DNA from: Blastocystis sp. subtype 4
Taxonomy: Eukaryota
DNA length: 37,684 nt
Direction of reading: 5' to 3'
Assembly (NCBI RefSeq): GCF_000743755.1
Contig: NW_014569472.1
Span: forward strand, 1 to 37,684
Shown: positions 1 through 37,594 of the stretch, in pieces
Layout of the letters: every line of letters starts with the position of its first letter
Position numbering within the stretch: the stretch's first letter is position 1
The notes under the pieces: generated by a model
Database searches by the model: none
Seen by the model: only the letters and a program-made list of their open reading frames with translations
What the model was told of the DNA's origin: nothing
Program-made: the position numbers and the translations under genes

Positions 1-33
1 CCTATTGATTCGTATAGTTTTGTCTTTGTGACC

Positions 34-41
34 TGTTTGTT
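34..41 (+). terminator. TGTTTGTT polyadenylation motif; probable 3' end of a plus-strand gene lying mostly left of the window
   Basis: Exact TGTTTGTT at 34-41. A TGA sits at 29-31, 5 nt upstream, the spacing seen at other gene ends here. Confidence 0.45.
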
Positions 42-170
42 TGTAGTCTTTTTTCAAATCGCAAGATTGTGTTACCAAGTAATCCATTCCTATCTCTAGG
101 GAACTGATGAGTGGTATTGAAAACTTAGAAGCACCTATGATCTATTATACTATGAAGTAATGAGATTCAA

Positions 171-178
171 AACAAACA
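171..178 (-). terminator. TGTTTGTT polyadenylation motif of the giant gene
   Basis: Plus strand aacaaaca at 171-178 reads TGTTTGTT on the minus strand, 15 nt after the TAA at 194-196. Confidence 0.75.
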
Positions 179-193
179 ATCAAATACATAAGC

Positions 194-3100
194 TTACTCT
201 TCATCCTGGTTAACTGAGGTTGCAATCACGAACTCAGCAGTATCCTCTTCGCTAATTCCATAACCCTTGAATCGGAAAGTCTTCTCGGTTCCACACACTA
301 ACACTCTGCTATCTCCCTTGTTCACCTCCACAGGGAATAATGCCTTCAAAGACATGGTGATACCAGTATCCATAGGTTCCTCATCCACATACTTCACACA
401 CATATTCAGTTCCACACCTTCAGAATGCTGATCGAAGATACCCACGAAGGCTCCATTCGTCACAGCAAACTCCTTGAACACATTCTCACATGTCGAAGTT
501 GTGAAGATCACGTTGCTCACCAACTCAGGATGAGAACCAAGCAGACGGAAGTTCTTGCCCTGAGACACTACAGCTGACGATTTACTGTAACCATCAAGAG
601 ACTCCAGAGCATTCACCTCTACCACTGTCACTAGCAGGATGGGATTATTATCAGGTGTCACACTGACATCATCCTGATCCTCGAAGTGGACACACAGCAT
701 CAAGGTCTCTTCAACGGCCTCCTGAACCATCAACAAAGCCTTAGCATTTGAGACAGGCGACCATGCTACAGCACTTGAGTTACTGCAGACAGCACTAGCA
801 GGTACAAGATAGGCAGCATCCAGACGATCCACATTGGAGCCGGAGAAGGTGTACTCCTTCGGACTATTGACATAGAGTAGATTCTTATTACCAGGAGCCA
901 TCACAGAAGATACATACAGCACGTCCACAGGCCACTCCTCATACAACACCCAGAAGTTATCCTCACCGTTGCCAAAGCCGTAGCACACATTCAACTGAGG
1001 AAGCCTAGGAGTCTTTGTCAGAGTCCAGGTCACCATGCAGCCTTCCACATCCTTCTCATCCTCCACATACTGATTGCAATCTGTGCCACTCACCAAACGC
1101 ATCTTATCAGTGCGTGTAATGTTAGGCGCCACATTTACAATCCAGATCTTCTGGACATGAGGAATGATCTCATACACTTCACCACTGTTATACTCATCCG
1201 TGATAGACAAGAGACCACGAGACTGCATTCGAATTGGCATGTAGGGTGCTCCATAGGACTGATCACTCATGGATACCCACTTCTTACCACTGAACTTGTA
1301 ACACAGTTTCCAATCATGTTCTTGTGTCGATACCTCTGTGAACGAGAACTCGTGATGCATGGACTCACCATCCCATTCCATGGCTACACCCTCATCAGCA
1401 TCTTCCATACCCATAGCAGGCGCAGTAGCACAGTCCGTAGTTTCATCATCCACCCACTTGTAACGACTCTCATGAACCATAGTATCCGTAGTGAAAAGAC
1501 GCAAGTTCGCAGTCACATTCTTTACAGCCCACAGGTTAAATGAGTCACTGTAAGAACCACCCAATCGCACTCCATTGGACACGACTTCAGCACTAAACAC
1601 ACCCAGAACAGTGAGATTGAACTGTGTGAGGAAAGGAGTGGCCTCTCCCTCGAACCAATAACAAATCAAAATACGTCCCGCTGTCGCCACAGATACATGG
1701 AACTTGCCCTCTGCATCCTTCTCATAATAGTCATCGAGTGTCACATCGTTCACGCAATCCTCAGAAGTCTTACCCTCATTAAGAGGGTCAGGAAGTGGGA
1801 AGATACGGTCACCAGGGAACACCATACCTGTGATTGTAATCTCGTTATCCTCATTGAACAAGACAGCATCGTTACGAGCTCCATCATCAACAATCAACTC
1901 ATTCACAGACATCACCATTACCACCATGTCATCATATATCATAGGCTCCTCATTCACAAACTGATAACACAGCTTGTAAGGCTCCGAAGCAAAGTCAAGA
2001 CTGAATTGGACAATACCATCAATGACCTCCATCCACTCACCAGCATCACAATTGTCACCAATCACCATCTTCGCCATATCACCAACACCAGCACCAATAG
2101 CTTCAATACGATAAGAACGAGGGATGTTGGCTGTCACCTTAGTGTTGTTACCATTCAGAGAAATGAAATCCAACACTGTCTTCGTTGTGAAAGCACTCAG
2201 AGCGAAGCGACGATCCATACCAGCAAACACATAACACATCTGGAGAGCAGACTCACTAGGCTCCGATAAGGTTACATTGAACGTCTTCTCTGTACTAACA
2301 GGCATCTCATAAAGGATCTCACCCGAGCAATCGACTCCTTCCACAAGCACCACCATGTCACCAATTCCAGCAAGAGAGGAACCTTCCACAACAAACTCCT
2401 TCTCCTGGTCGACCACAGCACCACTGCTAGAGAGAGCAGGGACCACAGAACGAACAGCAGGCACAGAACGGACAACGAATGAATACTCCTCATACTTGAT
2501 TGGAGCCTCGGACACAGTACCAGTAGTGAAGACGTAACATACATCATACTCCTGTTCTGTCTCAGCCTCCGTGAACTGATACTGGATCTTGTAATCCGTA
2601 CTCAATTTCTGGGTTCGGATAGCATTCAAACACGAGGATCCAGCAGTCACAAACATCACATCATCATTAGCAGACAAACCGAATCCAGTGAAGGCCACAG
2701 TAGACTCCTCTGTTTGTACGAAGACAGTTACAGGATACTCAGGATGATCTACCACTTCAGCACCCGTGATACCCTTCACAGAGAAGCTCAATACATCATA
2801 CCGCACTCCAGGTTCTGATCCGAACACATAACAGAGATACAAGCTAGATTGTGTTGTAGGCGCATCCACCATCACTGTCGACTCGAAGGCAGTCTCAGTA
2901 GCATTTACAGGGAAAGCAAACTCAGCATTCTCACAGTTAGTATATGTGAACATCACCGTATCATTAGCGCTGAGACCCACTCCTGTCAACTCCACCACCT
3001 TGGGCTGACGAGCCACAAGCACTTGAGAATGACCCGAAGCAAAGGCGGCACCTGTGAGTGTCTTCACATAAATCGGATACAGAGACACAAAGAGGTCATC

Positions 3101-6100
3101 CTCAGCGAAGCGGAAGCACATCGTAAGGTCCATGGTTGTGTACACATCCTCATTGAACTGGAAGCGGAGTTCGTGAGACTCGCCCAGTACCATGTTATCA
3201 AAGGCTGCAGCCACAGCAGGACTGCTGCAGTCTGCTCCCTCTACGACCTTAATGATATCCTGCGCTGTGATCAACACACCCGAATACACCAAAGTCTTTT
3301 CTTCACCCTTCACAAACACATTCTTTGCTCCAGCAGAAGGTGACACTTCAGGACGACCAAATACAATCAGATAGAAAGGACTACTCACTCCATATTCTCC
3401 CTCAGGTCCATAATGCATCCAGTCATGACCAGCGAACTGATAACACAACTGATAAGGAGCCTCTTCTGTGCTCTCCTCCGCGAAGTAGGTATCCGCCTCC
3501 AGCTCCTCATTCAGAGTGTAGAAGGATACAGACTGCGATACCTCATTAGGATCTCTCATGAAGTCCACCTCCTCATCACAACCATGGCCAGAAGGCACGA
3601 ATTTGATCTTGTCTCCAGCAGCCACTCCAATACCCGAGAAGGTCAGAGTCTTGGGTCGTAACCAGATAGCAATCGTATCACTACCCGAGGTAGCATTCAT
3701 CGTCATCAGTCCCTTCACCGTCAATGCATAGTTCTCATACAGGAAGACTTGGTTACCAGCGAACTTATAGCAGAGCTTCAGAGCAGTCGAAGTAGGAGCA
3801 TCCATAGATACAGCGATGTATGTAGCATTTGTCACCACATCAGCTTCCACAGGAGTCGAACAATCCGATTCTTCAGTGAACCAAGCACTATCATCCTCAC
3901 TGGCTCCTGATATCTCAGCAGGCACCTCAGTGTACTGCTTTGCAACCACAGATCCCGATTCGAATGAAGTCACTCCCTTAATCATCAGATCCCACTTTGC
4001 AGGCTGGAAAGCACCATTGCTTCCGAGCAACAGTGACTCCTCACCAGCGAACACGTAACACAACTGATATTTCTCTCCATTGCTAGTCGAATTGAACGTC
4101 AGACTCATAGAAGTCTCTGTACCAATGTACAAATAACCGATCTCCACGATCATCTCGTTCGAAGGACAACCTGTAACCGTAGGAGTAGCACTCTCAGGCA
4201 CGAAGTAGAAGTAATCGTCCGCATTCACATGACTACGCTGGAAGTAGAAGGTCTTGGTCTGACCAGCCACAGCACTGCTCACATCCATGTCCTCATCTGC
4301 AGTCACCGTCAAGGAATACAACACATAGGCAGTCGGGACACGCACAAACTCTTCTGAACCGAACTTGTAGCACAAGTAGATCTCTCCCGAAGCCACTTCG
4401 TCCATCACCTTCACCGAGGTCATCTGACCCTGGAGAGTAATCGAAGTAGCAGTCTCACCATTCACCTCAAGAGACAGAAGTCCAGAACATGACTCGCCAG
4501 CTATGAATGCTAACATATCACCAGCAGCGAAACCATCAGCAGTCACTCGGACAGGCTTCTCGTTATGAGCCACGAAGAAGGAGATATTCGTCTCCTGCAT
4601 AGTGTCCAAGAAGGCAGTGAAAGCCTTCACAACTACGTTGAACGTAGGATAGGGCACCACATTCTCTGCATTGGTTCCGTAGTGGTAACAGAACGTGTAG
4701 CTCACTCCGTTACTTCCAGTTGTAAACATATAAGTTGTTGTGAACACTCCATTCTCGCTCATCACGGGGAACGAAGCCACAGCAGGCGAAGAGCAATCAG
4801 CAGTAACATGGAACGACACAGCATCACCAGCACGCAGACCTTCACCCATCAGAACCATCGTCTTTTCCTGATTGGCCACAGCCGTATTGATATTGCCTTC
4901 TCCAGACACTGTCACAGAACTGAAGTCCATCACAAAGATAGGCTCTGTAACAGCCATAGCACCTTCCATACCAAACGAATAGCACAACTTCACACTCTTG
5001 CCAGCAGCAGTTTCACTGAATATGAACTGAGCATTCTGTATTGAAGTTGAAATCATATTCATTGTCACTGCAGCCAAAGTCGTCTCCTCTTCACAGTCCT
5101 CTGAACTCTCCACGAACCACATTGAATCAGCATCTGTGAAGCCATTTCCATTAATCAGAGCAGTCACCGGCTTGCCTACCACAGCATAACCAGGCTCACC
5201 AGACATTGTCACAGAAGACACATAGACCTGTGTAATAGAGAACGGATATGTCTTAACAGGCATAGTATTGAAGCGATAGTTCATCATCATTGGTTCCGTA
5301 GTCGTCGACTCCGTGAGAGACAGCGTGAATGTACCATTCTCAGAGACAAGGAAAGTCTCCGTCGACACGGTGCCCACATTGTAGAACACCTCATCATTCT
5401 CCTGAATCCACGAACCATCCAACACGAATGTCTTGGGAATGCCAACCACCACACGATCTGGAGCGCCCATCAGTGGCTCCACATCCGTAATCTCTCCAAC
5501 ACGCATTCTGTAGTCCATACCACAGTCCACAAAACTAGATCCTCCAATACTGTAACAAAGCTTCAACATATTGTTATAGCCCTGAGAGAACATCCAGCTC
5601 ACAGTGTTCTCACTGTTCAGTACAGCTGAAGCCACAGCCTCATCCGAGCACGATGTCTGCACGTATTTGAACGACTCGACAGCATCCATTGAGAATGTAG
5701 CCTCGCTCCAGGTCTGCACAAGAGTACAGATTGCCGCTGATAATGTCGTCACACGAATCGAGTAGCTCAGTTCACCAGTCTGGAGAGCTGTGACATCCCA
5801 ACCCGTTGTGAGGGAATTGAAATCAAATGTGTACTTGCCATCAGTGCTGATCAAAAGCGATTGAGTCATCAGAGCAGTTTCTCCAGCATACACAGTCACA
5901 GTCCATGTTGCAGTCGCGTACTGCTTCACTTGGACGTGCACGCGGAACAGTTCGATAGCAGGCAGTATATTTGTGATATGATCCGAAGTGAAACGGAACT
6001 CAGCATTAGCTGTCGAAGCACTCACCAGAGTCACTTCACCACTCTCCTGAAGCACAGTATCTAGAAGTCCATTCACGATGAATCCATTGTTGTTCATCTC

Positions 6101-9100
6101 CACATAGCGAGGCACACGAGTCTGCATGAATACAGAGCCCTTGGTTGTGACGTATGATATCACATGAGGTTGATTGGCCACACTGAACCACACATTCTGC
6201 TCAGACGACTGAGATACAACATAAGCACCAATGATATCCATCGAATATGTACTACTCTGGACACCAACACCTGTGAACATGTAACAGAACTTGAACGATC
6301 CCGTCCTCTCTGTCGTGACTACAGTTGAGCATGTCTCCTCAGTACATGTCACCACAAAAGGCTCCATAGCTGCCTCAGCAGAACACTCCTTATTCACATC
6401 GACCAACTTGAGGAAATCTCCACTCTTCATATTCACTCCAGTGAACACCAACTCGTTATTCATATTCTCCATCATCACACGAGACACAGAACCACTCACA
6501 CGTGTCTGTGCAGGTACCACTTCATGAACATTCACTTTGAATGCATCATAAGCGAAGAAGGCATCTCCAGCAAAGGCATAGCACAGCTTCAACTGATCCA
6601 CAGTACCCGAAGTCATTGGCAATGTTACATCACCCTTATAGACATTCGTATTCGTTGAGACAGGCATCAAGGAGGTAGCATGAACCATCTTCACCACATC
6701 ATTCACCTTCACATCCACCTTGCTTGTCAAAGTCATACGATGTGTATCAGGCTTATAATCCGACACATACACATAATGACCTCCAATGATGAACGGAGTC
6801 AATCCAACAGCAACTCCATCAACCACAGACGACTGCATCGACTTGAAGTACACTGTTATATCACTCTCGTCGTTCAGCTTCACCACTGTCGCAGTACCAT
6901 CTTCAGTCTCCAACACTTGCTCCACGAAAGTGTTCGGTAACACATCACCAAATCCATCACTGTAATCATTTAGCGTACTCACACAAGGCTGTGACACTGG
7001 CACGAACTTGAATTGATCATTCTCGCTTGAAGCACCTGCAAACGTCAGAGATGTTGTGACACCCGTAATCAGATCCAGAGTCACCTCCGTCTGATCATTC
7101 ACACTCGTCAGCTCATAGGCAGTGAAAGGCCAACTATAGAACACAGGGGACTCAACACCGAAGTAGTAGCACAATCCAACTGTGCAGGAAGGCATTGAAG
7201 TCAACATCAGAGAAGCAGTCAACGATGCATCCAGACTGACCACAGGAGAGAGAAGAGTCTCACAACTGCAGCCAAGAGCAACCTGATCATTCTCAGCAGC
7301 TCCCTGAGCAGCAGAGAATGAATACACCTTCTCTCTCTTCACAACTACCTTCAGCTTGTCTCCAGTATCCACACTCATGCCATCAACACTGGTGAAACCA
7401 AGAATTGACAGACGTACAGATGTCTCAGCAGGCTTCTCCGAAATGAACTTATAGCAGAAGAACCAGTTCGAGTTGGTAGCAGATACTGTATCCTCAGTAT
7501 TGATTGTGATTGTTGTCAACAGATGGGTTCCATTACTCACCACAGGGAAGCTCATCTTATTTGAAGCGTTCACATCTGCACACGACGAGGAGGCCACAAC
7601 CACACTATCTCCTTGAGCACCTCCCTCCGACTCAATCACGAACTGCTTTGGCACAGACAACACCACCACATCGTTAGCTCCCTCCACAGCATATACATCG
7701 GTGAAGCTCTTCACAACCATCGTAATGGAAGGTAGATACAGAGCAGGTTCCGAACCGAACTTCATACATCCGAAGAACTCAGTGTTGACAGCCGTGAGAT
7801 CAGTGTACAACACACTTACGTACAGAGTCGACTGTTGTGAGACGATGTTGCTGAACTCCGTCAGAGACTCACACTCTTCTGCTGAAGACACGAATGCGAA
7901 ACGATCACTACTATCAATATTATTGCCTGAAGGGAACACCAATCTCTTCTCCACATTGAGAACTGCAGTATTGAGACTCTGCTCCCTATCTACCGATGTA
8001 CCTTCTAACACACCCACGAATCCAGGCATGTGCTTCACACGGATGGAATCACCCGTAGCAAACGGAGTCTCATTGTCAAAGGCATAGCAGACATAGCAGG
8101 TCTTGCCGGCTAGTGAGCTTGGCAGATCCAGAGTGTATTGGTACTGAGAACCAGAACGAGAACGAGCCACCACTGGAGCAGTGTACACATAGGCAGAAGC
8201 ATTCTGACACTCATTGGAGTCCAACACAAGATGGACTTCATCATTGGTACTGTATCCATACGATCCATCTGTATCCGTCAAATAGTAGACCTTTGGAGTA
8301 TTCATCACAAGCACATTCGCAGCTCCCTGGGACACTGAATCAGGACCATAGTACTGCTTGATAGTCACCTGTGTAGCATTGTAGCGCATCCAGTTCTCAT
8401 TCACAAACTTGTAGCACAGAGAGAATGTCTTTCCAGCATCCTCTGTAGAGAAAGCAGAAGGAGCATAGAAGGAACCATTCTCCTCCACAACACTCGTAAA
8501 ATGAGCGATACCACACTCCTCACCATCTGTAGCCCATCCAGCCATATCACCAATAGCCAAACCACTGCCAGAGAAGTAGAACATCTTTGTATGACCAGCA
8601 ATAGCAGTCGTACTGCTTCCAGAAGTCAAAGTAGCATCAATACCAGTGATAGCAGACACATGGAAGCGTCCACTCACCTTATCATTGAATGCACTCAACG
8701 TAGAGAACTGATAGCACAGACCAAAGTCATCGCCAGCAGTCACATATTCCAGATCCACAACCACAGCAAAGGCATTATCAATCTCCATTACTGAAGTCTT
8801 AAACACACGTCCATCCAGGGCATTTGCAGCCACACAACTTGCCGATCCTCTCACCAAATACACCGTATCTTCGTAGGTAGCACCATTACCACGGATCTGG
8901 AAACGCTTTGACTGACCAGCAACCAAGCCGCGATCATCCATATTGTCCACAGAAGTGAACGACAAATCTCCAGGCAAGGTAATACGTAATGAATAAGGAT
9001 AACTCTTCCAGTAACCAGAATCCTTACTGAACCAATAACAAGCGTGTACATTATCACGAGACTCTCTCGAGAAATGAAGAGTCGATGAACACAAGTTGCT

Positions 9101-12100
9101 GTTGTCAGGACAAGTCACAATCGAAGCCTGAGGATCATCTTCTGGATGAACCACTTCAGGCAAGCGACGACCGAAACCAGTATGCACATCACACTCCTCA
9201 TTATTGTTGATAAACTTGATGTAGTCTCCAGTAGCGAGCTGCATACCATACAGGTTCAGAGGCTTCTCACCATTCGCCACCGCTTGATCCACAAAACCGT
9301 CCTGATCCACCAGGTTACCAGTCAGTCCGTACAACTCAGATACCGTGAAGGTGATCGAAGGATACAGCTGAGCAGGATAATTACCAAAGACGAAACACAA
9401 CTGGAGAGGCTGGCCAACAGTCAATCCCACTGTAAGGAACGTCACCTTGAAGGTGTTACTCGAGAGAGCAGTCACATTCATGCCCATAGCCTCCTCAGGA
9501 GAACAGACTGTTGCTGTAGCAGGTACTGCATAGAAGGTATTAACAGAAGACACGAACTCCACAAGCGTAAACGTGATCTCCTTCTCGTAATCAACCACAA
9601 ATCCAGTGATGCTTCCCTTATCCACAGAAGCAGCAGCTATCACAGTGTGTACAGCTACACGCACAGTTGGCACCTTATAATAGACATAATCGTCACCAGT
9701 AGCAATAGTACTCAAGTACATGTAACACAGCTCGTACTCCTTTGCCTCCTCGAAAGTGAAGTCACCATACGTGAACGTCTCCGAAGCATTCAACTCCTTC
9801 TCGGTAGAAGCATTACACTCAGTACCAGCCTCCACGAAGTAGGCACGATCCGCATAACGCAGACCCACACCATGGAACTGGATTGTCACAGGCTGATCCT
9901 TCACAACCATGATGGTCTTAGCAGGATCTTGTACACCCTCCACACTCAAGGTTTCCACAGCTACAGCATGGAAACCATTGTTACGAGAATACCATACATT
10001 GCTCTCCACAGGCTTTCGGATATAGCAGACAGTAACATCCGAGTTCGAGGTCTTGAAACCCACAGGTTTAGTAGTGCGAGTTACGCCATCAACCACCTCC
10101 AACTCATACTCATTGAACAGTTGCAGCACGAACTCCGTTGAGGAATCAATTGTTTCTAGGAACTCCACAAATGTAATTCTCTCAGTAGTCACACTACTGA
10201 TCGTCATCTTGTAAGACTTCTTATCGTTACGGTTCACCACAATCACCTTATCACCAGCAGCCAACAGAGATGTGAAATCATTGCCGTTAGTCACTGCCTC
10301 GTGCTGCTCACTCGGCTCACTTGTCGCAGGCACGAAACTGATAGTCATTGTCTCAGGCAGAGGATATCCATACTCCACACAAGGATTCTCGCTTGTGAAG
10401 CCAGTCGGGTTCTTTACGAAGCGGATACGATCTCCATTCTGAGCCACACCTCCAGATGTCAGTGTCAATGTGACCACCTTCGATTCACCAGCAACCACAC
10501 GCTCCGGCTGGATGGCTGACAACATCGTAACATCTACACCTCCAGTGTAGTTAGGAATCGTTGTCCATTCATCCTCTTCTGACACCTTGTATCTCATGCT
10601 GTACTCTCCAAATGGCAATCCGCTTATTACAGCAGAACGTGAACAAGTATCCAGAGGCATTATAGTAGTGAAGCTACCACACTTCGATGGGTTGCTACAT
10701 ACCAGACTCACAAGAGGCTTGATATCCGTTGAAGAAGCATAATCACAATTCTGTCCCACAAATATCGGATCCGAAATGGTATAGAAATCATCTGCCACTG
10801 ACTTATGGAAGTGCATCTTAATGAAACGACCCTTAGCATCCAAACCATAGAAACCATTCAGAGATTCAGAAACAGTATTAATATTCATTGTCTTCGATGG
10901 AGACCATGGTCCCTTCAGACTGTTCGAAGATTGGCTCTCCATACTCTGCACACGATGGTTCATCTCTCTCGTTGGTAACCAGTACAACTTATTAACCTTC
11001 ACACACTTCACGAAATCAGGCATCATCCAAGCCTCTTCGCCAGGTCCCAGCTTTCCAGTCGAGTCCATAGCACCATCAGTCAGCATTTCGTGGAAGTTCG
11101 ACAAGTACATGAAGTGACCACCAATAGAAGGACGATCACTAATGTTAAAGGACATTACTGACTCTGGCTTGCAACGATCCGATACAGCATCGAACGAGAT
11201 TGTAAAGTCGCTTCCAGTAGAGTGATACAGTCCTCCGGTACTCTCATTCTCCGTTCCAACCACAGGATAACCAAGATCATACACCTCCATCACAGTGTTG
11301 GGATAGAACTTCACCACAGACTCGTTGAACATGTAACAGAGAGACTTAGTACGAGCTCCATAACTCGACACCACTGAAGCCATTGTGAACTTGGTCGATG
11401 TTGTCTCCACATAATTGCTACCCGACAACTCATAGAACACCACCTTCACAGGCTGAGAACCAGCAGGGAATTGATCATAAACGCCATGCAGAACAATGGT
11501 ATGTGTGTACGTCTCACCCACAGTGGTAGGACAGAAGCTAGGATGGGTAGACTCCACCTCCGCCGACTTTACACCCACAAACTCCGATGCCATCGCCTCC
11601 AGATCAGCAATCGTGATTGAGGACACTTCCTTCATGACACGGCTACGAGTGAAGCTGATGAACTTGCCACTTGAATACAATGCCGACATCTGATTGTCTA
11701 AACGGAGAGCCACAAGCAAACCCTCAGTGGTCGAGTAAGCCTCATTTGCAGTACAAGACAGTGAGAAGGTGAAATCCTTGTGTGTATTCTCAGTGAAAGT
11801 CATCTGAGCACTGCATTGTCGAGAAGAAACGACACAGTTAGACACCAAGGTCGAGTTCTCCATCAGTTTCTCCTTTGTACACATCTCCTCCGAATCCACA
11901 AAGGCCATACGATCATTGGAGCCAACACTTCCACTCACAATGACAGTCTTAGGAACATCCGTAGCTGCCTGGCACTCGTTGATCAGACGCTTGCGCTCCA
12001 CCGTTACACCAGCAGCAACCTCTGACAACGCCAACACACAGTTAGACTCCATGGAAGCATCACTACACTCATCATCCAAGAACACAAAGAGATAGGTTCC

Positions 12101-15100: not shown

Positions 15101-18100
15101 ACTGCATGAACTACCATCCTTTGACAGCCAGAACTCTCCTGTAATGAGACCACTTCCATACAGACGCAATTGCTTCTCCACCTTGTCGGGGAGCATAGCA
15201 TAATGCATATTCAGTCCCTCAACATGAAGAAGTTGAGCTACCTCCGTAATCACACTGGTCTGCAGAAGCACTGGATCCAGACCCTCCGTTACATAACACA
15301 GATTTACATTCTTCGCAGAGTTCATAAACGTGACCGACACTGAACCTGCCATCGGAGTAAACGTCATTCCATCAATCTCTACGATACTACTTTCATCACA
15401 CTCAGAATTAGTGGTGAAGTAGCATTTGTCCTGCATCGTCAATCCACTAGCCACAAGCACATTCAACGAGGTGCTGAAGTCAGCCACTACAAAACTAACA
15501 GGCTCCAGCTGGAAGTCAACAACACGCACTGTCATTTCAGGATAAGCATGATACTCTCCTTCTGCCAAACGCAGACACATCATGTACTCAGAAGCAATCT
15601 CACCAATCAAAGTAATCTCACCAGAGATAGCTCCAGCAGCAAACTCACTCTCTCCATCAACTGTAAGGATGTTCACGCTATCACATGTCTCTCTAGCATC
15701 CACAAACTTCACCTTAGCACCTTCAACAGCAGCACTCAAAGTCACATTCAACGAAGCCTCCTGATGATTGGCAAAGATTCTAGGCTGGACATCCACAACA
15801 GCAACCACATTCAGAACCACATCGAAAGGATAAGTAGGCTCATTTGCGAACTTGTAACAAATACGAGCAGTAGAAGGAATGCCCTCCATACCATCCAGAG
15901 CCGAATGAATTGTCACTTGATTAGTCTCCAGATCCACTTCATCCACAACAGCGAACGAGTTCGCATCCTTGAAGGATGAGAACAGATTGAACAGCTCCGT
16001 TCCATCTTCCTCAGTATAGCCAGTAGTAGGGACATCATAGAACTGAGCACTCTTGACAGTTGAGTGGAATTTTTCACCATTCTTAGAATGATAGAAAGGA
16101 AGGCGCTCCGTTTCCTCACATGATGTAGCACTGGTCTCCGTCCATCCATACGAATCGCCCTCACGCATCATATAACCAGACACCTGTACATTCTTCGTCT
16201 GACCCTGGATTGTCTGTATTGTGACCGCGTTCAGAGAACCCACAGTGTAGCAGAATCGTTTCATCAAAATTGTATCTGGCGAGTTCTCATAGTTGTAACA
16301 CATAGCGAAGCAACTAGCATTATGGTTCATGATCTCAGCAAAGGCAGAAGACTCCTGAATAGTCATGGAGAAATGACCATCAGCATCCACAGTGACACTC
16401 TTGTCACCAGCTTCATTCAAAGCAATCAGATTCTCCTCGTTGCAAGTGAGTCCAGCAGTCAGAGATACTCTATCTCCACTGCCTGTTCCATAAGTAGTAT
16501 TCACAGCAAATGTCTTAGTATGACCCACAACCAGGAAGAAGTTATCACCATAATCCGAAGTGATACTGGCTACACCCTGGAACACAAGAGTCACCATGAA
16601 GTAAGGATGGAAGACTTCAGGTTCGTTCTTGTAAGCGTAGCACAGCTTGTAGACTCCTGACGATGTCGCATTACTAAAAGCGAATGCCACACGCTCCTTA
16701 TCAATGTCTTCCTCTGTTACAATAGGACTCTCAAACAGAGGAGGATCATTTTCCTCCATCATGTCGCAACTTGTATAACTTTCAGGAACGAACTGGACAC
16801 GATCACCAGCATGCAGATTAATACCCATAACGCTCAGACGATAGTTCTCTGAAAGTGAGAGGGAGATCGACTGATACTCCTGACCTCCATAATACAATCC
16901 ATTAACAGTAGCTACTTCAACAGAAATATCATATAACTTATAGGGCTCTTCATCGAACTTATAACACAGCTTGTAATCCTTCATACTGGCTTCATCGAAA
17001 CTGAGTTCCACAGAGTGGTTTTCATCCACCTTCTTATCAGGAATACCATTGAATGTAGCATATCCCGAATCACAACTATCACCAGTTGTGTATCGCACGA
17101 AATCTCCTTCCTTCACTCCAGTACCCGTGTAACTAAACACGGATGGCACTCCCTCCACAGCTAATACACGAGAAGTGGAAGTAATATCATACACAGAGAT
17201 AGCATACTTGGCCATGAAGGAATATTCATCATCCTCAAACTTCCAACACACTGTCAAAGTTCCCTCCTCAGCTGTAGGAACCATCAAATCCTTCACATAG
17301 GCCTCAATTGGGTTGCTACCATACACAGTCTCTTCCACCACAGTCTCACTGCTGCAGTCGGTACCACGCACCAGCTTCAACTTATCCTTATCACTGAATC
17401 CAAAACCACTAATGGTCCATGTCTCAGGCACACCAGCCACCAATGTTGAGTAAAGACCCTTGTTTGAGATGATGGAGTCAATACCCACAACTGTCATCTG
17501 GAAGTTTGGATACATCTTGAATGGCTCCTGACCGAACTTGTAACATAAAGAGAACTTATTGTCAACTCCAGCATATGAACTCTGCAGGAAGGTCATAGAA
17601 GTACTGCTTCCAGTCACACGCAAAGCACTAAGACTCTCCACAGACTCGGCCATCAGTTCCGAGACTCTTGTTGCCAACTCACTTCGACTCTTCTCAATCT
17701 CCACCAGATCCCCAGAATAGTCACGAGCCTCAGAAGCACTCACCTGTGATAACAAGGCAGTCTTACCATCACATCCCTCGTCACCATAGACCCACTTTGC
17801 GTACTCCTCAACTCCCTCGTCATGACCTCCACTCACAACAAAATCGAATGATTTCTCAATATACATCACTGAGACACTATTTGAACAATCTGTGCAGACA
17901 GCATTCATTTCAAGGACATCGTATACACGCATTTCAATATTAGGTACACGGTACCAAGGCTGACCCTGGAACTGATAGCAGATATAATAGGAACTGGCAG
18001 CACCCTCGTTAAACAGAATAGTAGCATCCAGCTTCTCATCCACAGAGATAGTATTACTCTCGAGAACTGAGCAGTCCTCCACCTCGCTGAAACCGACCTT

Positions 18101-21100
18101 ATCCATAGCTTGCACTCCATAGTTCTGCTCACTGGCAAACTGCAGATTCTTGGCATTTCCAACCACAGCAGTGGTGTTCGAACCCACATCAGTTGAGATC
18201 GTTTCAACTGTCATCACTTCGATCGTCATCAGCGTAGGATAGAAGAGAAGATCGGAACGAGAACGATAGCAGACAGTGAAAGGCATCTTGAACACTTCAG
18301 AACCGGTAACAAAAGCAACATCGAAGTAGTATCTGGCTCTATCTGCATCGTACAGGATTGGAAGCTCCTGGACATCCCGAGTTGAAGAAGGAACTCGCAG
18401 ACGAGCTAGAGTACCAGAACAATCACCATTCATGGCGAAACTCAACAGATCGCCTTCCTCAAAAGCTCCCTGTACGTTCCACTTCTTCATCACACCCTTC
18501 ACAGCCACACGATTCATACTGTAACCCATTTCCACCTCCTCACGAGTCCACCAAGGAATGATCTCCTCCACAGAGTGTGAAGTGATAGTCACATCCTTAT
18601 AATGGACAGTGGCTTCATTACCAAAGATCATACACAATGAGAAGTTACCTCCACGCAAGAAACGAATATGAGCCTTTCCATCAGCATCGATAGAAGCAAC
18701 TGTGCCAGTCTGACCTGTTGTTAAGTCCACCATAGACACCAGATCGCTAGAGCAATCATTGCCACTGGTCAAAGAGAAATGATCGGGAGTCGAACTCACA
18801 CCCAGATTGAAACCATAGAAACGAGCCTCACTATCCACATACGTCACGAAGGATTGCTCCCCATCTGTATTATGGATCGCGTTCACACGAGCAATACGGA
18901 ACGGGAAGTCATATCGCTTTGGCTCCTCATTACCGAACTGATAACAAAGCGACACCAACTCCTCATAGCCTTGAGTGAACATCACTGATGTGTAATGCAT
19001 ACTGTCAACAGACACCACATTTTCATCATATAGATGGTCACTGCTGATTGGCAAGGCATACTTGGTACGACAAGGACGATCACTCTTCACCCAGTAAGCG
19101 CGGTCTCCAACATTCACTCCATAACCAGTAAACTCCACATCTGCCTTCGACCCAGCAACAATTAGATACTTATCATCAATCTTTTCATCTGTACTGTAGC
19201 TGCGAGCATCATACAGATCAAAGACACGCATTCGAATATCCTTATACAAATGGAATGGCTCCTCGCCGAACTTGTAACACAGATAGAAGCGTTCATCTGA
19301 TTGCTCTGATGAATCCATAGCGAAGCTGAATGTAGCACGACCATTCACATCCACACTCACAGAATGAGCACTTGCATCTGCATTCTTCAAAGCGTTCTTC
19401 AAACGATCAGCACGAGACGTGATCATCTTGTATCGCTCAGCTTCATCCTCCTCCACTGAATAAGAGAGCATATTCGTCTCCACAGTCATGGAGGACATCA
19501 GAGGCACCACCTCTGAATCACAAGAATCACCACGCACCCAGCGAATTACATCATTGGACTTATCCGAAATACCCGTACCAGTGAACTGAACAGTCTTAGG
19601 CTGATCCACAATAGCCAAATCATCAGTATCAGTTGTCGACACCGTTGTCATTCCCTGAATCTTCTTCACCGTCAACGAGAACGCAGGATAAGCATGATAA
19701 TCTTCATTACCATGCTTGTAACACAGAACTGCAGAATCCTGAATTGTCTCATGGAAGCAGAAAGTAGCACTGCGGTTCTCATCCAGAGACACCTCGGGAT
19801 GCTTCTGATCCGCCCCAAGTCCATTACACACCGAACCCCAATACACCTTATCATTTACACTAACACCCAAACCATTGAAAGTATAGGTCTTGGGAGACTC
19901 CACAACCATGACATTGGCAGAACCATCGCTTACATACACACTAGTCAGACCAGCAACCGTGACGAATACGGGCATCTTCACGAAGTAGTCCAGATCCTTA
20001 AACTTGTAACACACTTGAAGAGATCCCGAAGGAATGGCATCCACCTTCATCGACACCTTAACGTCCTCCGTCACATAGAATGTCTTGTTCTCGAAAGGAG
20101 TCTCACACTCATCATCACCATGATTGACGTAGCGTGAACACATAGGAGAATCCACATCACGAGGAGTGATCAGACGGATCTGATCTCCTTCGCTAAGACC
20201 ACTACCGCTCAACACCAATTCCTTCTCAACGCCTCCCACCAACACTACAGAAGAATCCCCAGTACTCGAAGTGAATCCATCGAACTTGTGGAAGAACGTC
20301 GTAAGAGTAGGATAATCGATTGTCTTAACATTGTTCCAGTGGTAGCACAAGCTATATTCACCTCCTTCAGACTCCTTCACAAGGAATTCAGAGGAAGCAA
20401 GAGACGAAGATACACCTGACACAGGAGCACGATTCACCAGCTCCTCACGCTTGCCATCAATAGGCAGACTATCAGTACTATTCATACAAGATCCACCAAC
20501 TACCTTGAAGGACACTGAATCGAAGTCCGTTGATCCCTCTAAAAATCGGAAGTAATCGATATCCATCTCTGGCTTATACAAGCATCCAACAATCGCATGT
20601 TGATTGCGAATAGAAAGCACATCCAGACTATATATGGTGATCGAAGGATACTCCTTCGCCAACTCCTGACCAAAACGATATGACAGATAGTAACGACCGT
20701 GTACATCAAACTTCACATCACAGCTGGACTGGAGATTAATTCGAGACACCACACCAGGCATTCGCACAGTATTATCACTTTCTAGAATCCATTCAACAGA
20801 ATCACTGAGAGTATACTCTAGGGGCCAGATACCTGAGAACACGTAATTCATTTCTGGTTCACCAGCATATCCTTCCATAGGTGTCACACCAGTTATGTCC
20901 ACTACATTCATCGTGAAGTGATTGAACCTGTAGTATTTCGAATCCAAGTCGTTCGCGAAGTGGTAACACAGCACTTGAGAGGATACAGAAGGTTCTGGGA
21001 ATATCAGACGCACCTTCAACATGGTCGAACTCTCCAGAATCTTATCGTTCGTACTGATGACAGTATTGCTAGCCAATGAAGGGTCACAGGCTTGGCCATA

Positions 21101-24100
21101 AGGAACAAAGAATAGAACATCATAGAGCGTCAACGAGTTACCTGTGATTGTAAACCACTTGTTCTGATTTGCAACGATAATATTCTTTGCCATGGAAGGA
21201 ACAGTAGCTTCCACACTCTTCAGACTCATCACAGTAAACCGGATGTTAGAATAATGGACGAACACACTACTATTAGCGAACTGGTAACAGAGGGTCCAGC
21301 TGGAACTAGGCTCCAAATCCGATACAAAGGCCATCTCAACCGTTCCATCTTTCTGTACCGTCAGGGTATTCACAGTTACTCCATTATGGATGAACGAAGC
21401 AAAGTCTCCATTATAACAATCTTCACCGCTCTTCAACACACGCACAAGGTCGTTCATCTTGATGGAGCCAGGTGTTCCTGTCACCAGAACCGTCGTAGGA
21501 TATCCAGCCACGATTTCACGAGGAGTTACATCGACCACACTGTGTAAATCAACCTTGATATCAGGATAAATCTTCCAAGGAGCTGACCCAAACTTGTAAC
21601 AAAGAGGAGCACCTAGGTTGGTATAAGCAGGATTGTATGTGAACATGATATTGGTAGTCACCTTGTTACCCTCCGAAAGACTCACTTCACCAACAGCACC
21701 ATTACCAATAGTCATGTGATCCACAGTGGATGCCAACACAGTAGCGGCAAAATCCTCACACTTATCTGTTTCAGGGCACGTCTGAATCGAAGTGGCTACA
21801 AAGTCGAATGTTGTGTGATCCACAGCTGTAGCCACAATCGACTTTCCTTTGTTGTTACCATCGAAGATAAAAGATGTCAGAATGAAAGCGAAGGAAGAGG
21901 AAGGAGTAGAGAACACATACTCACGGTTCAGCTCAAAATCGCTGAAAGAACAAGCAGAATCAGGATTCACAATCTGGAGAATACCATTCACATTATCATA
22001 GATGAAACGCTCATTATCACAGGTCGTAACCGAAGTACACTTACGGCAAGAAGGACTCGATGGCAAAACAACCTCCAGCTCTGGCTGAGGTCCAGCAGGC
22101 TCTACTACCGTGATCGTGAACTTGACCGTGTACTGGCCGCTACGCTGAATATGCACAGAAGCCTTGTCGATGGTAGGAAGCTGCTCCATCTTGGTAGCGA
22201 CTTTCAACTCCGTATCATCCACATAGATAGGAACAGTGTTCACACCATTACTCTTAAGAACAAAGGATCCTCTGTGAGTCACCTTATCGAACTCAAAGGT
22301 AACAGTCTGTTTATCCTCAATAGAACCGAACGATTGACTGGATGCACTCCAACAGTCACTATCCTGGGTAGAACCAGGCAAAGCAAACTTGACACGATCA
22401 CCAGAATTGCCATACACAGTATCAAACTCCATAGGAATACTTATATGAGAAGCTACAGAACTATTAGCCATTGAACCCACATTAGCGACACGTATCTGAA
22501 TGGTATCAACCTTCATAGGATCCACAACACCACGAGGACTCGTGAAATCAAAGCACAGATCCTTCAGTCCTGAGTCGGTGAAGGCCTGGATGGTCGAATG
22601 ACCGCGAGAGCTCACCGACCAGAAGTCTCTACTATCAGTACAATTCTTTCCTGGGTCCACCCACAGAGCACGGTTCATGTTGTCAGAATCAGCCTTTGAT
22701 CCAATGAAATCAATCTGGATCACACTTGTGAACACAGTGCTTCCCCAGTTCTTCGTGATCAACAAACGGAAATAACGAGCTGTGGAATCGTGGTCCAAAT
22801 CCCAGTACATAAAGTTACCCTCTTGGGAATTGTCTCGTGGCATATCCTTTACAGACAGCACCGTCTGCCAAGGAGCATCCATCTTCGCAGAGTCGGCATC
22901 AAACAGACAGGAATCCTCATAGCACGACACCAGACGTTGGACCTCAAAATCACGAGGCAACTGAGGGAAGAATACGGAATTGATGAACATACCAAACCGA
23001 TGGAGGGTAGTGATATTCTTCAGATCGTATATGATCCAATGATTCAAGCCACTGGAACGACCACCATTCTCAAAGGCGAAGATGGTATCCATGGGATTAT
23101 CGAAGGGCATAACAGTCACATATGGACCATGCGAAGCTACAGCACGGCCACTACAATACTTAGCATCCTCAGGACTATTGCCTCCAGTCAAATCTGCATT
23201 CGGAGTCAACTTGTAGTACGTCTTCTCACGCTCAGTATCATGAATACCATAACCATAATATTCAATGAGAGTCTGCATACCCTTCACAGCAAGAGGTATC
23301 TCACTTGATACACCATTAGCCTCCACATACGAAATCGACGATACAGACACACTGAAGGAGAAAACAACCGCACTTCCTTCAATAAAGGAATACACAAGAC
23401 GATAGTCACCAATCGCTGTGAAGGTCACTGTACCATTGCGCTCAGCCGAGGAAGTCTCACCGAAACTGACAATAGCACGATCACCATTCTCATTTACATA
23501 ATAGGCAGAATCCAGAGCATTCAGTCCAATACCCTTCAAGGTAATCGAAGTTGCCGCGTTAATGATAGCTGTATTAAATGCAATAGATCTCACTCCCACA
23601 ATGGTTGTGACCTCAGACACAGTACGGAAGGTAAAGACATGATTCAGATCGAAAGGGGTTTCACAAGCAGCCATATGATAGAGAAGATGGTACTCACCAT
23701 CATCAGCAGGACTCAGCACACGGATGCTAAACACAATACGATCTCCAGTCGATGTGACAGTCCGGACAGACGACTCAATTGAAAGTGCCTCACCATTCTG
23801 AACGAAGGAAATAGCATCATTCGAAGTGAAACGAGTTCCAGTGATCTCTAAGTCTTGTTGATAATTCTCATACAACTGGAAAGAAGATGGTGTGATCTCA
23901 ACAATGGTGATAGTCCTCTCAGAGAAGGATATGCACAAACCACTGAAATTGGCAATCACATGATAAAGACCAGTCTGAGTGAAAGTAGTATCCACCGTGT
24001 ACATACCATCTGCAACACCTGATACAATACCAGAGCCAGCGATCAAGCCCATTTCATTACAATTTCCATTAGCAAAGTAGACTTCATCACCGATACCCAG

Positions 24101-25851
24101 ACCCGAGCCAACAATAGACACAGACTCCATACCAACAGCAGCATAACCACAATTTGAAGTCACAATTGAGGTGATCATAGGCTCCTCAATATCAATAAAC
24201 GCAGTAGGAACAATAGCGGCAATACCACTGTCATAATACATACAGAAACGAGCTCCAGACATCGCCATAGAAGTATTAATGGTCATACTAATAGTGTCAT
24301 TCTCAAAGACGAAGAACGGTTCTGCTAGAATCGATGTAGCACTCAAGCAATCCTCCGAAGCGGTCACGGAACTATCCACAACAACCAGATGAGCGTCCTT
24401 CGCAATGTTTCCAGTACCACGTAATGTCACCATACCTCCGATAGGACCTTGCGACGGAGAGATAGTGTTCAGACCATAAACAATTACATTCTGATTTGAT
24501 TTGAGTCCTCCCAGACAGAGAGAAGCCTCTTGACTCTCAGGAACCGAAGCAAACGTCGACAGGATTACTGCCTTGTTCTTATCATAACAATAAGCTTCGG
24601 GCTTGTCAGCCTCGATGAACTCGTCCAACACATATAAATCCGTAGGGAACTGCATAAGACCAGTGATCAAGGTCTGCGCGTTACGAATCAGAACTGTTGG
24701 CCTTGATACCGAAGAGAAGAAAGATACACGGAAACCCTTTCCAGTCCTGGTTCCTTCGACCAGAACATACTTTGTCACAGTTGTAGGGAAACCAGCAGCG
24801 TAAAGATCATTGCGAAGCTTCGAAGCCTCTACAACAATCGTGTAAGGACCCAGCTGCACACCATCGATCTCCAGCTTGAACTCACCATTATCCAGTTGAC
24901 GCTGATTGTCGCTTGTTGTAGCAAAACCAAAGTCGAGAACAGAGGTAGACAAAGCAGGGGAACTGCATGTACTCGTCGAATCCACCCACTTCGCAGCAAC
25001 AGACTCTGAGAGGATCTGGCCAAAGAACTTCATCTCCAGAAGCTCAACGTTCTCAGGATCTCCCCAGTTGGAAGTAATTTCGAGCTTCCAGTACCGAGCA
25101 GCAACAGGCTTATGATTCGATGCCTCAAGTGTCACCTCTCCAGGAATGAGATAAGACATGTTGTAAGTAGTGAATTCATAGAAAGGACCAGAAATGCTGT
25201 CACGAGCATAGTACACTACAATAGTACGAGGAGAACGACGCTCGTTCTGAATGGTCACATTGATAGCCTGAATGAGAGCGGGCTTCTGGGTATCGAACAC
25301 CATGGAAGCACTCAGATTCTCACACCAATCGCACATAGCTGTGGAACAGGCAGGATGGGCAGAGACATCATCTGTGCACGTAGATACTCCTTGACAACCA
25401 GAACATCTACGTCCACCTTCCTTCTGGTTATAAGCAGCAATCCTATCTCCATTGATCGTCAGCATCTGGCAATTATCAGTATTATTATGACAACTCTCAC
25501 TAACAATGGAAATGGTTTTCCAGATAAAACCAGTAGTATCCTCACCGTCAAACACATCAGCAGGGTGACCAGTGGTCTGATAGGGTGGAACGTACGGAGG
25601 AACATTAGCAGTATACCCCCACTTTCCATAACCCTTGGGTCGGCTACCCCAAGACTGACGAATCTCATCAGTTGGAAGCCAACTCATCGAGGCTGCTGAA
25701 TCACAACGATCATCCTCAAACAGGATAGAAGACGGATGAGCTACAACAGAACTAATTTCAGCTGATACGACCATAACGGTCATCAGCAAAAGCATAAATC
25801 TAGGTACTCACGCAAATCACATAATGTCTACAACTCAGTAAATCTAGTCAT
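194..25851 (-). CDS. Giant (~8,541 aa) predicted secreted/surface protein: ~65 tandem two-Cys Ig-like/beta-sandwich-type repeats with inserted F5/8 (discoidin-like) and other modules
   Basis: Uninterrupted ORF 194..25795 (8533 aa). A probable short first exon (ATG 25851) and 32-nt GT..AG intron (25800-25831) give MTRFTELFMLLLMTVMVVSA, which looks like a signal peptide. Repeat consensus: VxGxxKxFxFxGxGLxxGDxVxFVxxxxxC...YxLCYxFxxExxxxY. Acidic and S/T/V-rich. TGTTTGTT follows the stop. Confidence 0.93.
10750..11175 (-). other. F5/8 type C (discoidin)-like domain 3 within the giant protein
   Basis: MLTDG...EAWMMPDFVKCVKVNKLYW...KGRFIKMHF matches the F5/8 pattern (A.DG, W..vD, ..RYvRl). Confidence 0.6.
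22700..23220 (-). other. F5/8 type C (discoidin)-like domain 2 within the giant protein
   Basis: NHWIIYDLKNITTLHRF...PRDFEVQ...WQTV...TARYFRLLITKNWGSTVFTSVIQIDFIG. Confidence 0.8.
25019..25570 (-). other. F5/8 type C (discoidin)-like domain 1, with a Cys-rich insertion
   Basis: HPADVFDGEDTTGFIWK...SPRTIVV...AARYWKLEITSNWGDPENVELLEMKFFG. Confidence 0.8.
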
Positions 25852-26196
25852 TATTTCAATAACTCAGCAAAGTCTAAAAACAGATTTTGAATAAAACCAA
25901 TTAATGACTTTCTTGTATTGAAAATCTGATCTCAAAGAAAGTCCACTTCGAATAAATGTCACTGGCCACAATTTTTGCTCGAGTAAACGACACTGAAATC
26001 AATTAAATATTTGGAATTCTGGACATTTATCCGACATTTATCACACTTTCGATCTTTTTGACCATTTTTGCTATATCGAACACCTGTTATTAAACAGATT
26101 AACATAGATTAGATACAACAGATTCTACCTAAGAGATTGATCTGTAGAAAGAGGAAAAGAGGTCTTTGAAAAAACAGGGAATTCACAACAGATACT

Positions 26197-28053: not shown

Positions 28054-28190
28054 CAAAATCAGGGTTGGTACAGGATGACAGAATCACCTTATCAATTCGT
28101 AACTTTGTTGTCCATGAGGAAATAAAGATAATAAAAATCGAAAAGAGGAGTAGAAAGCAAAAAGGACGCACCACCCTCATAAGAAAAATG

Positions 28191-28263
28191 CACCCCACCT
28201 GAGACTCGAACTCAGAATCTTCTGCTTAGGAGGCAAACGCCTTATCCATTAGGCCAGTGGAGT
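28191..28263 (-). tRNA. tRNA-Arg(CCT): tRNA-Arg, anticodon CCT
   Basis: 73 nt. Acceptor stem ACTCCAC/GTGGGGT, D-arm TGGCCTAATGGATAAGGC, anticodon arm TTTGC-CTCCTAA-GCAGA, T-arm CTGAGTTCGAGTCTCAG. A TTTTT Pol III terminator follows. Confidence 0.96.
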
Positions 28264-28347
28264 ATCACAGATTCTTCGAATTATTTCCTTATAAGAATTG
28301 TTATTGCACTTTCACTTCGTCTCGTCATTACTCCAAACGAACTCTTC

Positions 28348-28355
28348 AACAAACA
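28348..28355 (-). terminator. TGTTTGTT polyadenylation motif of the RAD23-like gene
   Basis: aacaaaca on the plus strand, 25 nt after the TAG at 28381-28383. Confidence 0.7.
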
Positions 28356-28380
28356 GATAATTTATTCATCGGAGATAATC

Positions 28381-37564: not shown

Positions 37565-37594
37565 TCAACAAAAATGAGTTTGCACTAAAGTCAC

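Follow-up and report, generated by a model that had tools for sequence, protein, structure and literature searches.

The 37,684-nucleotide (nt) stretch analysed here, referred to below as the window, comprises positions 1 to 37,684 of the forward strand of contig NW_014569472.1 in the Blastocystis sp. subtype 4 assembly GCF_000743755.1. It contains a giant gene on the minus strand, the product of which is predicted to be an acidic, secreted string of immunoglobulin-like (Ig-like) units carrying discoidin-like modules. A reading made from the letters alone (the sequence-only reading) had proposed a protein of about 8,540 amino acids (aa) at 194..25851. The model presented below gives 8,541 aa, and the coordinate given as its end, 25851, proves to be where the start codon begins, because removal of a short intron brings the ATG at 25851-25849 into frame. 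The parts of the gene, with the evidence for each, are as follows.

194-25851, minus strand: the giant gene as a whole, one gene of two exons (open reading frame (ORF) and RNA contigs)
25832..25907, minus strand: exon 1, extending at least this far 5', with the 5' untranslated region (UTR) and the first 20 coding bases (RNA contigs of runs X3, X7 and X8 reach 57-76 letters past the joint at 25832)
25851-25849, minus strand: start codon ATG, in frame once the intron is removed
25760..25851, minus strand: predicted signal peptide of 20 aa, split by the intron (sequence; hydrophobic start conserved in homologues)
25800..25831, minus strand: intron of 32 nt, GT..AG (joint 25799->25832 in three RNA runs; DNA run X1 continuous)
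197..25799, minus strand: coding part of exon 2, 25,603 nt (ORF; RNA contigs)
194..196, minus strand: stop codon TAA, encoded in the DNA (sequence)
171..193, minus strand: 3' UTR (193-183), poly(A) site (183), spacer (182-179) and TGTTTGTT (178-171) (end of an X3 contig plus sequence)

Structure and transcription of the gene

Exon 2 opens into a minus-strand ORF (194-25795) that runs for 8,533 codons without interruption, to which splicing adds eight codons at the 5' end, giving the 8,541-aa product; an in-frame TGA lies upstream of the ATG at 25866-25864. The intron joint (25799/25832) is present in all three RNA runs that cover it, two of which (X7 and X8) come from one study and the third (X3) from another. 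RNA contigs contain no splice-type joint inside the 25.6-kb coding exon, the sole other joint there being an opposite-strand chimera in one X7 contig (23869/23991). At the 3' end, an X3 contig stops at 183 carrying 23 unmatched T, the minus-strand equivalent of a poly(A) tail, 11 nt past the TAA. The poly(A) site so defined lies four bases before TGTTTGTT and matches the Blastocystis rule, given in PMC4159000 as a four-base gap between poly(A) site and motif in about 96% of genes.

Coverage by X3 extends over the whole of the gene, with depth in every one of the 30 bins of 1-20000 and cover continuing up to exon 1, and one X3 contig of 9,182 nt spans from 16694 through the intron joint into exon 1. 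We treat X3 as RNA because of this splice joint, the poly(A) tail, joints of 30-31 nt in neighbouring genes, and a depth of zero across 26356-29023, a stretch over which the DNA run holds a flat 19.5. X7 and X14 leave parts of the gene uncovered, which is uninformative, since the RNA evidence consists of assembled contigs that report presence only and provide neither an expression ranking nor proof of a single 25.7-kb molecule. Within this scope, the giant gene is real, spliced, polyadenylated and transcribed, with transcripts in three RNA runs from two studies. The sequence-only reading, which would have been overturned by a silent gene, survives on this point.

Architecture of the protein

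The spliced product has a mass of 939.5 kDa (0.94 MDa) and an isoelectric point of 4.49, with 1109 acidic residues (D+E) against 570 basic ones (K+R), in keeping with the acidity claimed for it earlier. Its N-terminus consists of a basic residue, 12 hydrophobic residues and then V-S-A, an arrangement conserved in homologues, and a hydropathy scan finds this signal-like start to be the sole hydrophobic window of the whole protein. The signal-peptide-like pattern noted from the letters is thus confirmed, and entry into the endoplasmic reticulum (ER) with cleavage after V-S-A would be expected. Units and modules along the protein are listed below; their aa positions here and throughout follow the numbering of the 8,533-aa ORF.

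24830..25513, minus strand: predicted discoidin-like / galactose-binding-domain-like module 1, aa 95-322, with a Cys-rich insert (head model, Foldseek)
24476..24829, minus strand: alpha/beta head region, aa 323-440, no family match (head model, predicted local distance difference test (pLDDT) mostly 84-94)
24176..24475, minus strand: first Ig-like unit, aa 441-540, with a G-P-x-G-G start (strands of the head model, homologue alignment)
197..24151, minus strand: array of 65 Ig-like units, aa 549-8533 (own hidden Markov model (HMM))
minus strand: inserts within the array, aa 819-1106, 1182-1314, 2406-2535, 3732-3898, 4489-4603, 4688-4779, 4839-5092, 5168-5291 and 6522-6687 (own HMM)
22589..23056, minus strand: discoidin-like module 2, aa 914-1069 (module-1 profile, sub-threshold Pfam)
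10520..11281, minus strand: candidate discoidin-like module 3, aa 4839-5092 (ESM Atlas lead)
4616..4912, minus strand: the unit chosen for folding, aa 6962-7060 (AlphaFold2 with the 52-unit alignment)
197..322, minus strand: incomplete C-terminal unit, aa 8492-8533 (own HMM, positions 2-40 of the 91-position unit model)

The repeat HMM, seeded with 16 units and iterated on the window protein itself, reports 70 units, 65 of them at domain E<1e-3, with a median spacing of 103 aa (interquartile range 97-114). Neither 20 shuffles nor the reversed sequence yielded any unit, the best domain E among these controls being 0.25. The earlier count of about 65 tandem units of about 100 aa is thus reproduced with clean controls. 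Its description of their motifs fares less evenly: an LCYxF-like motif is found in 51 of the 65 units, but the glycine motif in its strict form (G-x-G-[LIVMF]-x-x-x-D) in only 16. At least two cysteines are present in 55 of 65 units, and in an alignment of 52 units two Cys columns are conserved at 90% or more, from which we infer one disulfide per unit. Judged by their sequences, the units are old and diverged, because those 52 share a mean identity of only 17%. Tandem repeats of unit size are absent at the DNA level, and this rules out recent tandem duplication or assembly collapse as the origin of the array. The first Ig-like unit after the head scores at only E 0.024 with the repeat HMM, and its G-P-x-G-G start is typical of IPT/TIG domains.

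Fold and family of the unit

Modelled with AlphaFold2, the unit at aa 6962-7060 forms a nine-strand sandwich (pLDDT 91.3, predicted template-modelling score 0.80), so that the beta-strand patterning recognised from the letters holds for the one unit folded. With the high confidence of this prediction, we take the unit for an E-set type of Ig-like sandwich. A Foldseek search of the model against the PDB returned no match at E<=1e-3. The best match of an exhaustive structural search was the CNNM4 ectodomain (Z 8.4, root-mean-square deviation (rmsd) 3.2, 97 residues aligned), followed by a mixture of IPT/TIG and other Ig-like domains: plexin A4 IPT (Z 7.7, rmsd 2.5, 85 aligned; range for plexin IPT and TIG domains 7.0-7.7), NF-kB p52 (7.7), NFAT1 (7.5), filamin (7.5), CAMTA1 TIG (7.2) and EBF1 (7.0), together with GH9 N-terminal Ig and macroglobulin domains, all of these matches lying at Z 7-8.4. 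Scores under 8, and indeed the whole range of 7-8.4, are rated as common by the search tool, and unrelated Ig-like domains equal or exceed the IPT/TIG scores.

Pfam does not name the unit. Three long pieces of the protein (2,933-3,000 aa) gave only sub-threshold matches and no family for the repeat at E<=0.01, and when 52 single units were searched no family matched more than one of them even at E<=10. The claim that the repeat belongs to no named Pfam family consequently stands for the Pfam-A copy searched. The TIG model (PF01833) in particular matches 0 of 52 units at E<=10 and none of the three long pieces at E<=0.01; the unit works like a bead of the IPT/filamin type but is not recognised by the TIG model. 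The IPR008009-type putative Ig / He_PIG repeat (IPR008009 is, we assume, PF05345) is likewise without a match in the Pfam scans of the long pieces or of the 52 units.

A profile of the 52 units, searched against PDB sequences, gave one significant match, to Toxoplasma SporoSAG (2wnk_A, E 2.3e-6), composed of two weak stretches (domain E 0.72 and 0.025) in which both SRS domains and two Cys motifs align. The corresponding Pfam model, SAG (PF04092), has no match in the 52 units, no SRS chain is present among the best 50 rows of either structural list, and SporoSAG is the sole SRS protein among the PDB sequence matches.

Head and discoidin-like modules

The first 560 residues were modelled with ten homologues as alignment (pLDDT 70.6 overall, mostly 70-94 over aa 130-550), and a jelly-roll is visible in the model within module 1, at roughly aa 109-262. 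Foldseek matches it to galactose oxidase (E 3.2e-5) and to discoidin I/II (E 4.8e-4), as well as to two bacterial F5/8 type C domains, 2kd7 (114 columns, rmsd 3.2, template-modelling (TM) score by target 0.47) and 3f2z (TM 0.50). The N-terminal domain of galactose oxidase is of the galactose-binding-domain-like type. In Pfam, the Sad1_UNC family (PF07738) reaches 18.6 bits at aa 224-259, below its cut-off of 22, and is precomputed on 5 of the 17 homologues listed. As far as the model goes, module 1 has a discoidin-like fold.

Module 2 is recovered by the module-1 profile in all 7 proteins tested, with domain E values from 2e-9 to 1e-5, which shows at the sequence level that the two modules are homologous; F5_F8_type_C (PF00754) scores 18.7 and 19.1 bits on it, against a cut-off of 28.2, and has no match on modules 1 and 3. 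For module 3, F5_F8_type_C clusters account for 22 of 30 named matches in the ESM Atlas, with a best score of 0.93, and we list it as a candidate on this language-model lead. The module-1 profile gives it only E 2.7, neither Pfam nor a phmmer search of PDB sequences matches it, and the roughly 250-aa insert that holds it is absent from two deep orthologues described below (P0002 and P0003). The three F5/8-like domains of the sequence-only reading are thereby reduced to two, one by its predicted fold and the other by profile homology with sub-threshold Pfam support, plus the candidate. A Pfam scan of five inserts likewise gave only sub-threshold matches. A duplicate of the alpha/beta head region at aa 1134-1243 was considered and rejected, with similarity of only E 0.06-0.23.

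Homologues of the Blastocystis type

The first homologue search returned four giants, 88%, 27%, 25% and 23% identical over the region searched. The best named homologue is the hypothetical protein WA158_004086 of Blastocystis sp. Blastoise (P0002, 7,395 aa), and orthologues from metagenomes are P0001 (88% identical), P0004 (79%) and P0003. P0002 and P0003 are 25-31% identical to the window protein and about 1,150 aa shorter, and thirteen shorter, mostly fragmentary homologues match the head at 41-100%. P0001-P0003 have in common with the window protein a head of about 550 aa that includes module 1, then three units followed by module 2, and an array of 57-62 units, and the long homologues align colinearly over 3,700-4,700 aa.

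All four long proteins (the window protein, P0001, P0002 and P0003) also end alike. None has a C-terminal hydrophobic segment, and in each the last unit is partial and lacks at least its last two strands, stopping in the window protein at position 40 of the 91-position model. This partial unit has been retained despite only 25% identity between deep branches.

We had considered that the head might be better conserved than the stalk, an idea rejected by near-equal identities: head and body are similar in six closer homologues (e.g. 55.4 vs 51.7, 41.5 vs 42.7), with a slight gap in two deep ones (31.0 vs 25.7, 28.7 vs 26.6). With conservation about equal in head and stalk, the stalk does not behave as a spacer that is free to drift. 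Orthologues diverge far faster than a neighbouring housekeeping gene, with head homologues down to 41% and the nearest named Blastocystis orthologue at 25-31% vs 91% for the named Blastocystis homologues of the housekeeping gene, in a comparison that is not matched strain for strain.

Distribution of the unit among eukaryotes

The sequence-only reading had recommended a wide search with an HMM of the repeats. Searched against 1.84 billion representatives, the unit profile finds 611 representative proteins at E<=1e-3, of which 280 remain at E<=1e-10 and 97 at E<=1e-30. Organism names were looked up for 30 matches and obtained on 13 clusters, and the groups represented are oomycetes, a haptophyte, kinetoplastids, diplonemids and an ancyromonad. 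The organisms so named are Diplonema papillatum, D. ambulator, D. japonicum, Lacrimia, the prokinetoplastid Papus, Trypanosoma congolense, Leptomonas seymouri, Phytomonas, Plasmopara halstedii, Globisporangium splendens, Phytophthora aleatoria, Diacronema lutheri and Fabomonas tropica. Members that were looked up have profile E values of 1e-24 to 1e-126 and 9-25 matched stretches each; they include the following.

Diplonema papillatum: 'hemagluttinin family protein' KAJ9453652.1, 5,563 aa
Trypanosoma congolense: TCIL3000_8_3470, 6,290 aa
Leptomonas seymouri: ABL78_4426, 6,812 aa
Plasmopara halstedii: ConA-like/Calx-beta proteins, 3,250 aa

Relatives outside Blastocystis resemble the window protein in the unit of about 100 aa and, for the most part, in giant size and a signal-like start. 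They differ in their partner modules and in a hydrophobic segment near the C-terminus, the layout of a type I membrane protein. A crude hydropathy scan finds one such segment in relatives from Diplonema, Papus, Trypanosoma, Leptomonas and Phytomonas, and most of these kinetoplastid, Papus and diplonemid giants also have an N-terminal hydrophobic segment. Pfam recognises known modules in 5 of 12 relatives, and in 4 of these five the modules are clearly extracellular: Reprolysin with Disintegrin and PAN; Calx-beta with Laminin_G_3 twice (once together with Pentaxin and Laminin_B); and REJ with TIG and GPS. In the relative P0028, the unit is joined to REJ, TIG, GPS and EF-hand domains, and hydrophobic segments are present.

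On the strength of these sequence matches, the repeat is no novelty of Blastocystis and belongs to an unnamed family spread across several eukaryotic supergroups. The unit is a widespread eukaryotic extracellular domain for which there is no Pfam model, and the Blastocystis proteins are its anchor-less version. A literature search found no paper on the window protein or on the accessions of its relatives; the supplementary tables of genome papers, which could list it, were outside that search.

Proposed function of the giant protein

We read the product of this spliced gene as an acidic, secreted string of Ig-like units with discoidin-like modules, likely an extracellular, fibrous, glycan-binding coat or adhesion protein, and give this reading a probability of roughly 0.5. 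The first part is the firmer: that the protein is a secreted string of Ig-like beads with lectin-type modules seems to us highly probable. A role as a coat or adhesion fibre at the cell surface is a somewhat worse than even bet, and identity with the fibrils of the surface coat would go further along the same line. Extracellular character is suggested by the signal-like start, by the Cys pair kept in units that are otherwise 17% identical, and by the extracellular partner modules of relatives.

Under this reading, the product would enter the secretory pathway through its signal peptide, and its 65-70 Ig-like domains would form a string with a length of about 0.25-0.3 micrometre, given a span of about 4 nm per Ig domain; the thickness of the Blastocystis coat is of the same order. 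Two or three discoidin-like modules, probably glycan-binding, would be displayed on this rod, and the protein would work outside the cell as a fibrous coat or adhesion protein. Lacking a membrane anchor, it could be retained if its lectin-like modules grip sugars of the cell's coat, or if a partner supplies the rest of the truncated last unit. According to PMC6115916, the surface coat is a filamentous layer of loose fibrils to which bacteria are attached, of unknown protein make-up, which varies between isolates and is described as 'intriguing but poorly studied'; the ST7-B isolate is given there as thick-coated, and the coat of ST1 as imperceptible. Our literature search, from which supplementary tables of genome papers were again excluded, found no Blastocystis surface proteome. 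The extracellular beads-on-a-string protein with lectin modules envisaged from the letters is upheld in its Ig-like array, signal-like start and discoidin-like modules, and falls short in its third module and in its attachment to the cell.

Several points weigh against this reading. Transmembrane segments and a GPI-like (glycosylphosphatidylinositol-like) tail are lacking in the window protein and its last unit is incomplete, so that attachment to the cell is unexplained; the protein may be shed, or held by its lectin-like modules, or its last unit may be completed by something else. With a signal peptide the protein could equally well end up in the central vacuole, in the cyst wall or in the medium. 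All Pfam scores of the lectin-like modules are below their cut-offs, and the fold matches, themselves obtained from a model, place the unit no closer than 'Ig-like'. N-glycosylation sequons number 53 vs 69.9 +/- 6.7 in shuffles, fewer than expected; the idea of heavy N-glycosylation is unsupported, and because of this depletion the giant protein is itself not obviously a carrier of coat sugars. Finally, to call its expression 'abundant' would go beyond what contigs support.

A bolder form of the coat reading can also be put forward, although we hold it to be improbable: the Blastocystis coat fibril would be the window protein itself, an anchor-less rod of about 0.3 micrometre, held either by its discoidin-like modules or by a separate membrane partner that supplies the missing strands of the last unit. 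Its unit would then define an ancient extracellular domain family of eukaryotes, as yet without a name, of which the apicomplexan SRS proteins may be distant relatives.

The alternative that survives best, while still unlikely, is that the protein is shed as a soluble giant agglutinin or matrix protein, cross-linking bacteria or mucus in the gut lumen or medium. Its signal-like start combined with the want of any anchor fits such a role, as does the fact that 4 of 4 long Blastocystis-type proteins have no C-terminal hydrophobic segment and relatives elsewhere have one. No observation contradicts it directly; the conserved incomplete last unit may hint at docking and not at a free end. Slightly less likely again is a protein of the endomembrane lumen, filling the central vacuole, or a component of the fibrillar layer of the cyst, and in neither case a protein of the vegetative surface. 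The central vacuole of Blastocystis is huge and its cyst has a fibrillar layer, and a signal peptide shows ER entry only; yet transcripts in three RNA libraries, for which the stages sampled are not known, do not suggest a rare stage-limited product, and the partner modules of relatives are of extracellular-matrix types. A third possibility, which we consider remote by comparison, is the ectodomain of a receptor or sensor, similar to family members of the REJ/GPS/polycystin type, with a membrane partner encoded separately. P0028 provides a precedent for joining the unit to such domains, and the truncated last unit could dock on the partner, but Pfam finds no REJ, GPS or channel-type domain in the window protein. 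An artefact of assembly, a pseudogene or a transcript that is never translated is scarcely credible as an explanation, given a lone 2-nt deletion (at 10190, in one X7 contig of depth 3.4) to set against an open 25.6-kb frame, the lack of unit-size DNA repeats able to mislead an assembler, the agreement of RNA with DNA in independent runs (0 differing letters in the pieces listed), and a frame kept in colinear homologues at 25-88% identity.

Comparison with known systems

Giant extracellular proteins made of tandem Ig-like domains are a known kind, and the present one is distinguished by being built from an unnamed, ancient eukaryotic domain. The nearest eukaryotic parallels are the IPT/TIG-repeat ectodomains of plexins and of PKHD1L1, the latter a membrane-anchored protein. 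Likeness lies in the tandem E-set Ig-like sandwiches, plexin IPT/TIG being among the nearest solved folds of the unit; the difference is that the Pfam TIG model matches neither the 52 units nor the three long pieces. PMC6707252 presents PKHD1L1 as a very large protein required for the coat of hair-cell stereocilia.

The sequence-only reading drew an analogy with the giant adhesins of bacteria, which holds for the layout and not for descent. As described in PMC5466336 and PMC4647330, the giant bacterial Ig-repeat adhesins SiiE and Bap have Ig-like beads of 80-110 aa that hold the binding function off the cell, SiiE having 53 BIg domains in 595 kDa. The window protein is likewise a beads-on-a-string of Ig-like modules. 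However, it has no sequence relationship with SiiE, LapA or Bap: Big-family repeats are missing, with a lone Big_3_5 match at 15.5 bits (cut-off 35.5) and none among the 52 units. Moreover, the window gene is eukaryotic (spliced, polyadenylated and with a signal-like start), in contrast to the type 1 secretion of the bacterial adhesins, and its units are diverged (17% identity, no DNA repeats) where bacterial ones are near-identical.

Compared with discoidin, F5/8 type C and Sad1/UNC domains, module 1 is similar in its modelled jelly-roll, and some homologues carry PF07738; it differs by its Cys-rich insert and by Pfam scores that stay below the cut-offs in the window protein. Proposed adhesins with Ig-type repeats of about 90 residues have been described in Blastocystis before, PMC3129679 having proposed 26 'putative Ig' (IPR008009) genes of bacterial origin in subtype 7 (ST7) as adhesion candidates. 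These belong to a different family, the unit studied here having a eukaryotic and not a bacterial distribution.

Neighbouring genes

Directly upstream of the giant gene lies a rhomboid-family gene (26895-27657, minus strand) in two ORF pieces, presumably parted by a short intron, with Pfam Rhomboid scores of 29.5 and 23.5 bits (cut-off 22.6). Enzymes of this family cut adhesins that are anchored in the membrane of other parasites; unlike such substrates, the giant protein has no membrane segment. Further to the right, an RmlD-type 3,5-epimerase/4-reductase gene (30380-30958, plus strand), of the type that serves rhamnose-nucleotide synthesis, shares 91% identity with proteins of Blastocystis sp. 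DL and NMH and has an X3 depth of about 800-890. A sugar-nucleotide enzyme is thus encoded near a candidate coat gene. A 292-codon ORF at 33735-34613 (plus strand) encodes acidic, low-complexity short repeats rich in E, T, V, G and P and has no Pfam match.

Introns of neighbouring genes, as defined by X3 joints, are of 30-31 nt and typical of Blastocystis (36361-36391, plus; 37112-37142, minus; 37388-37418, minus; and one of 30 nt at 36965). Besides these introns, the RmlD-type match, the poly(A) signal and the Blastoise homologue of the giant all mark the DNA as that of a Blastocystis; the DNA data sets in which it occurs are recorded as mouse gut metagenomes. At the right end of the window, the summed X3 contig depth over 37028-37684 is about 38,500, perhaps reflecting very high expression or a repeated element; 29 X3 contigs run past the ends of the stretch to which they were aligned, and 47 of the 126 aligned are only 95-99% alike. 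At the opposite end, a second TGTTTGTT at 34-41 (plus strand) suggests, on sequence only, a convergent gene ending about 150 nt from the poly(A) site of the giant gene.

Implications for Blastocystis and for the family

Few eukaryotes are as common in the gut of humans and animals as Blastocystis, and the protein make-up of its coat is an open question. The giant gene is a concrete candidate for an answer, being transcribed and encoding a signal-bearing protein of 0.94 MDa with lectin-type modules. Additionally, trypanosomatids, diplonemids, oomycetes and others have giant surface proteins that contain the unit. Consequently, naming and modelling this domain of about 100 aa would annotate hundreds of giants that are currently listed as 'hypothetical'.

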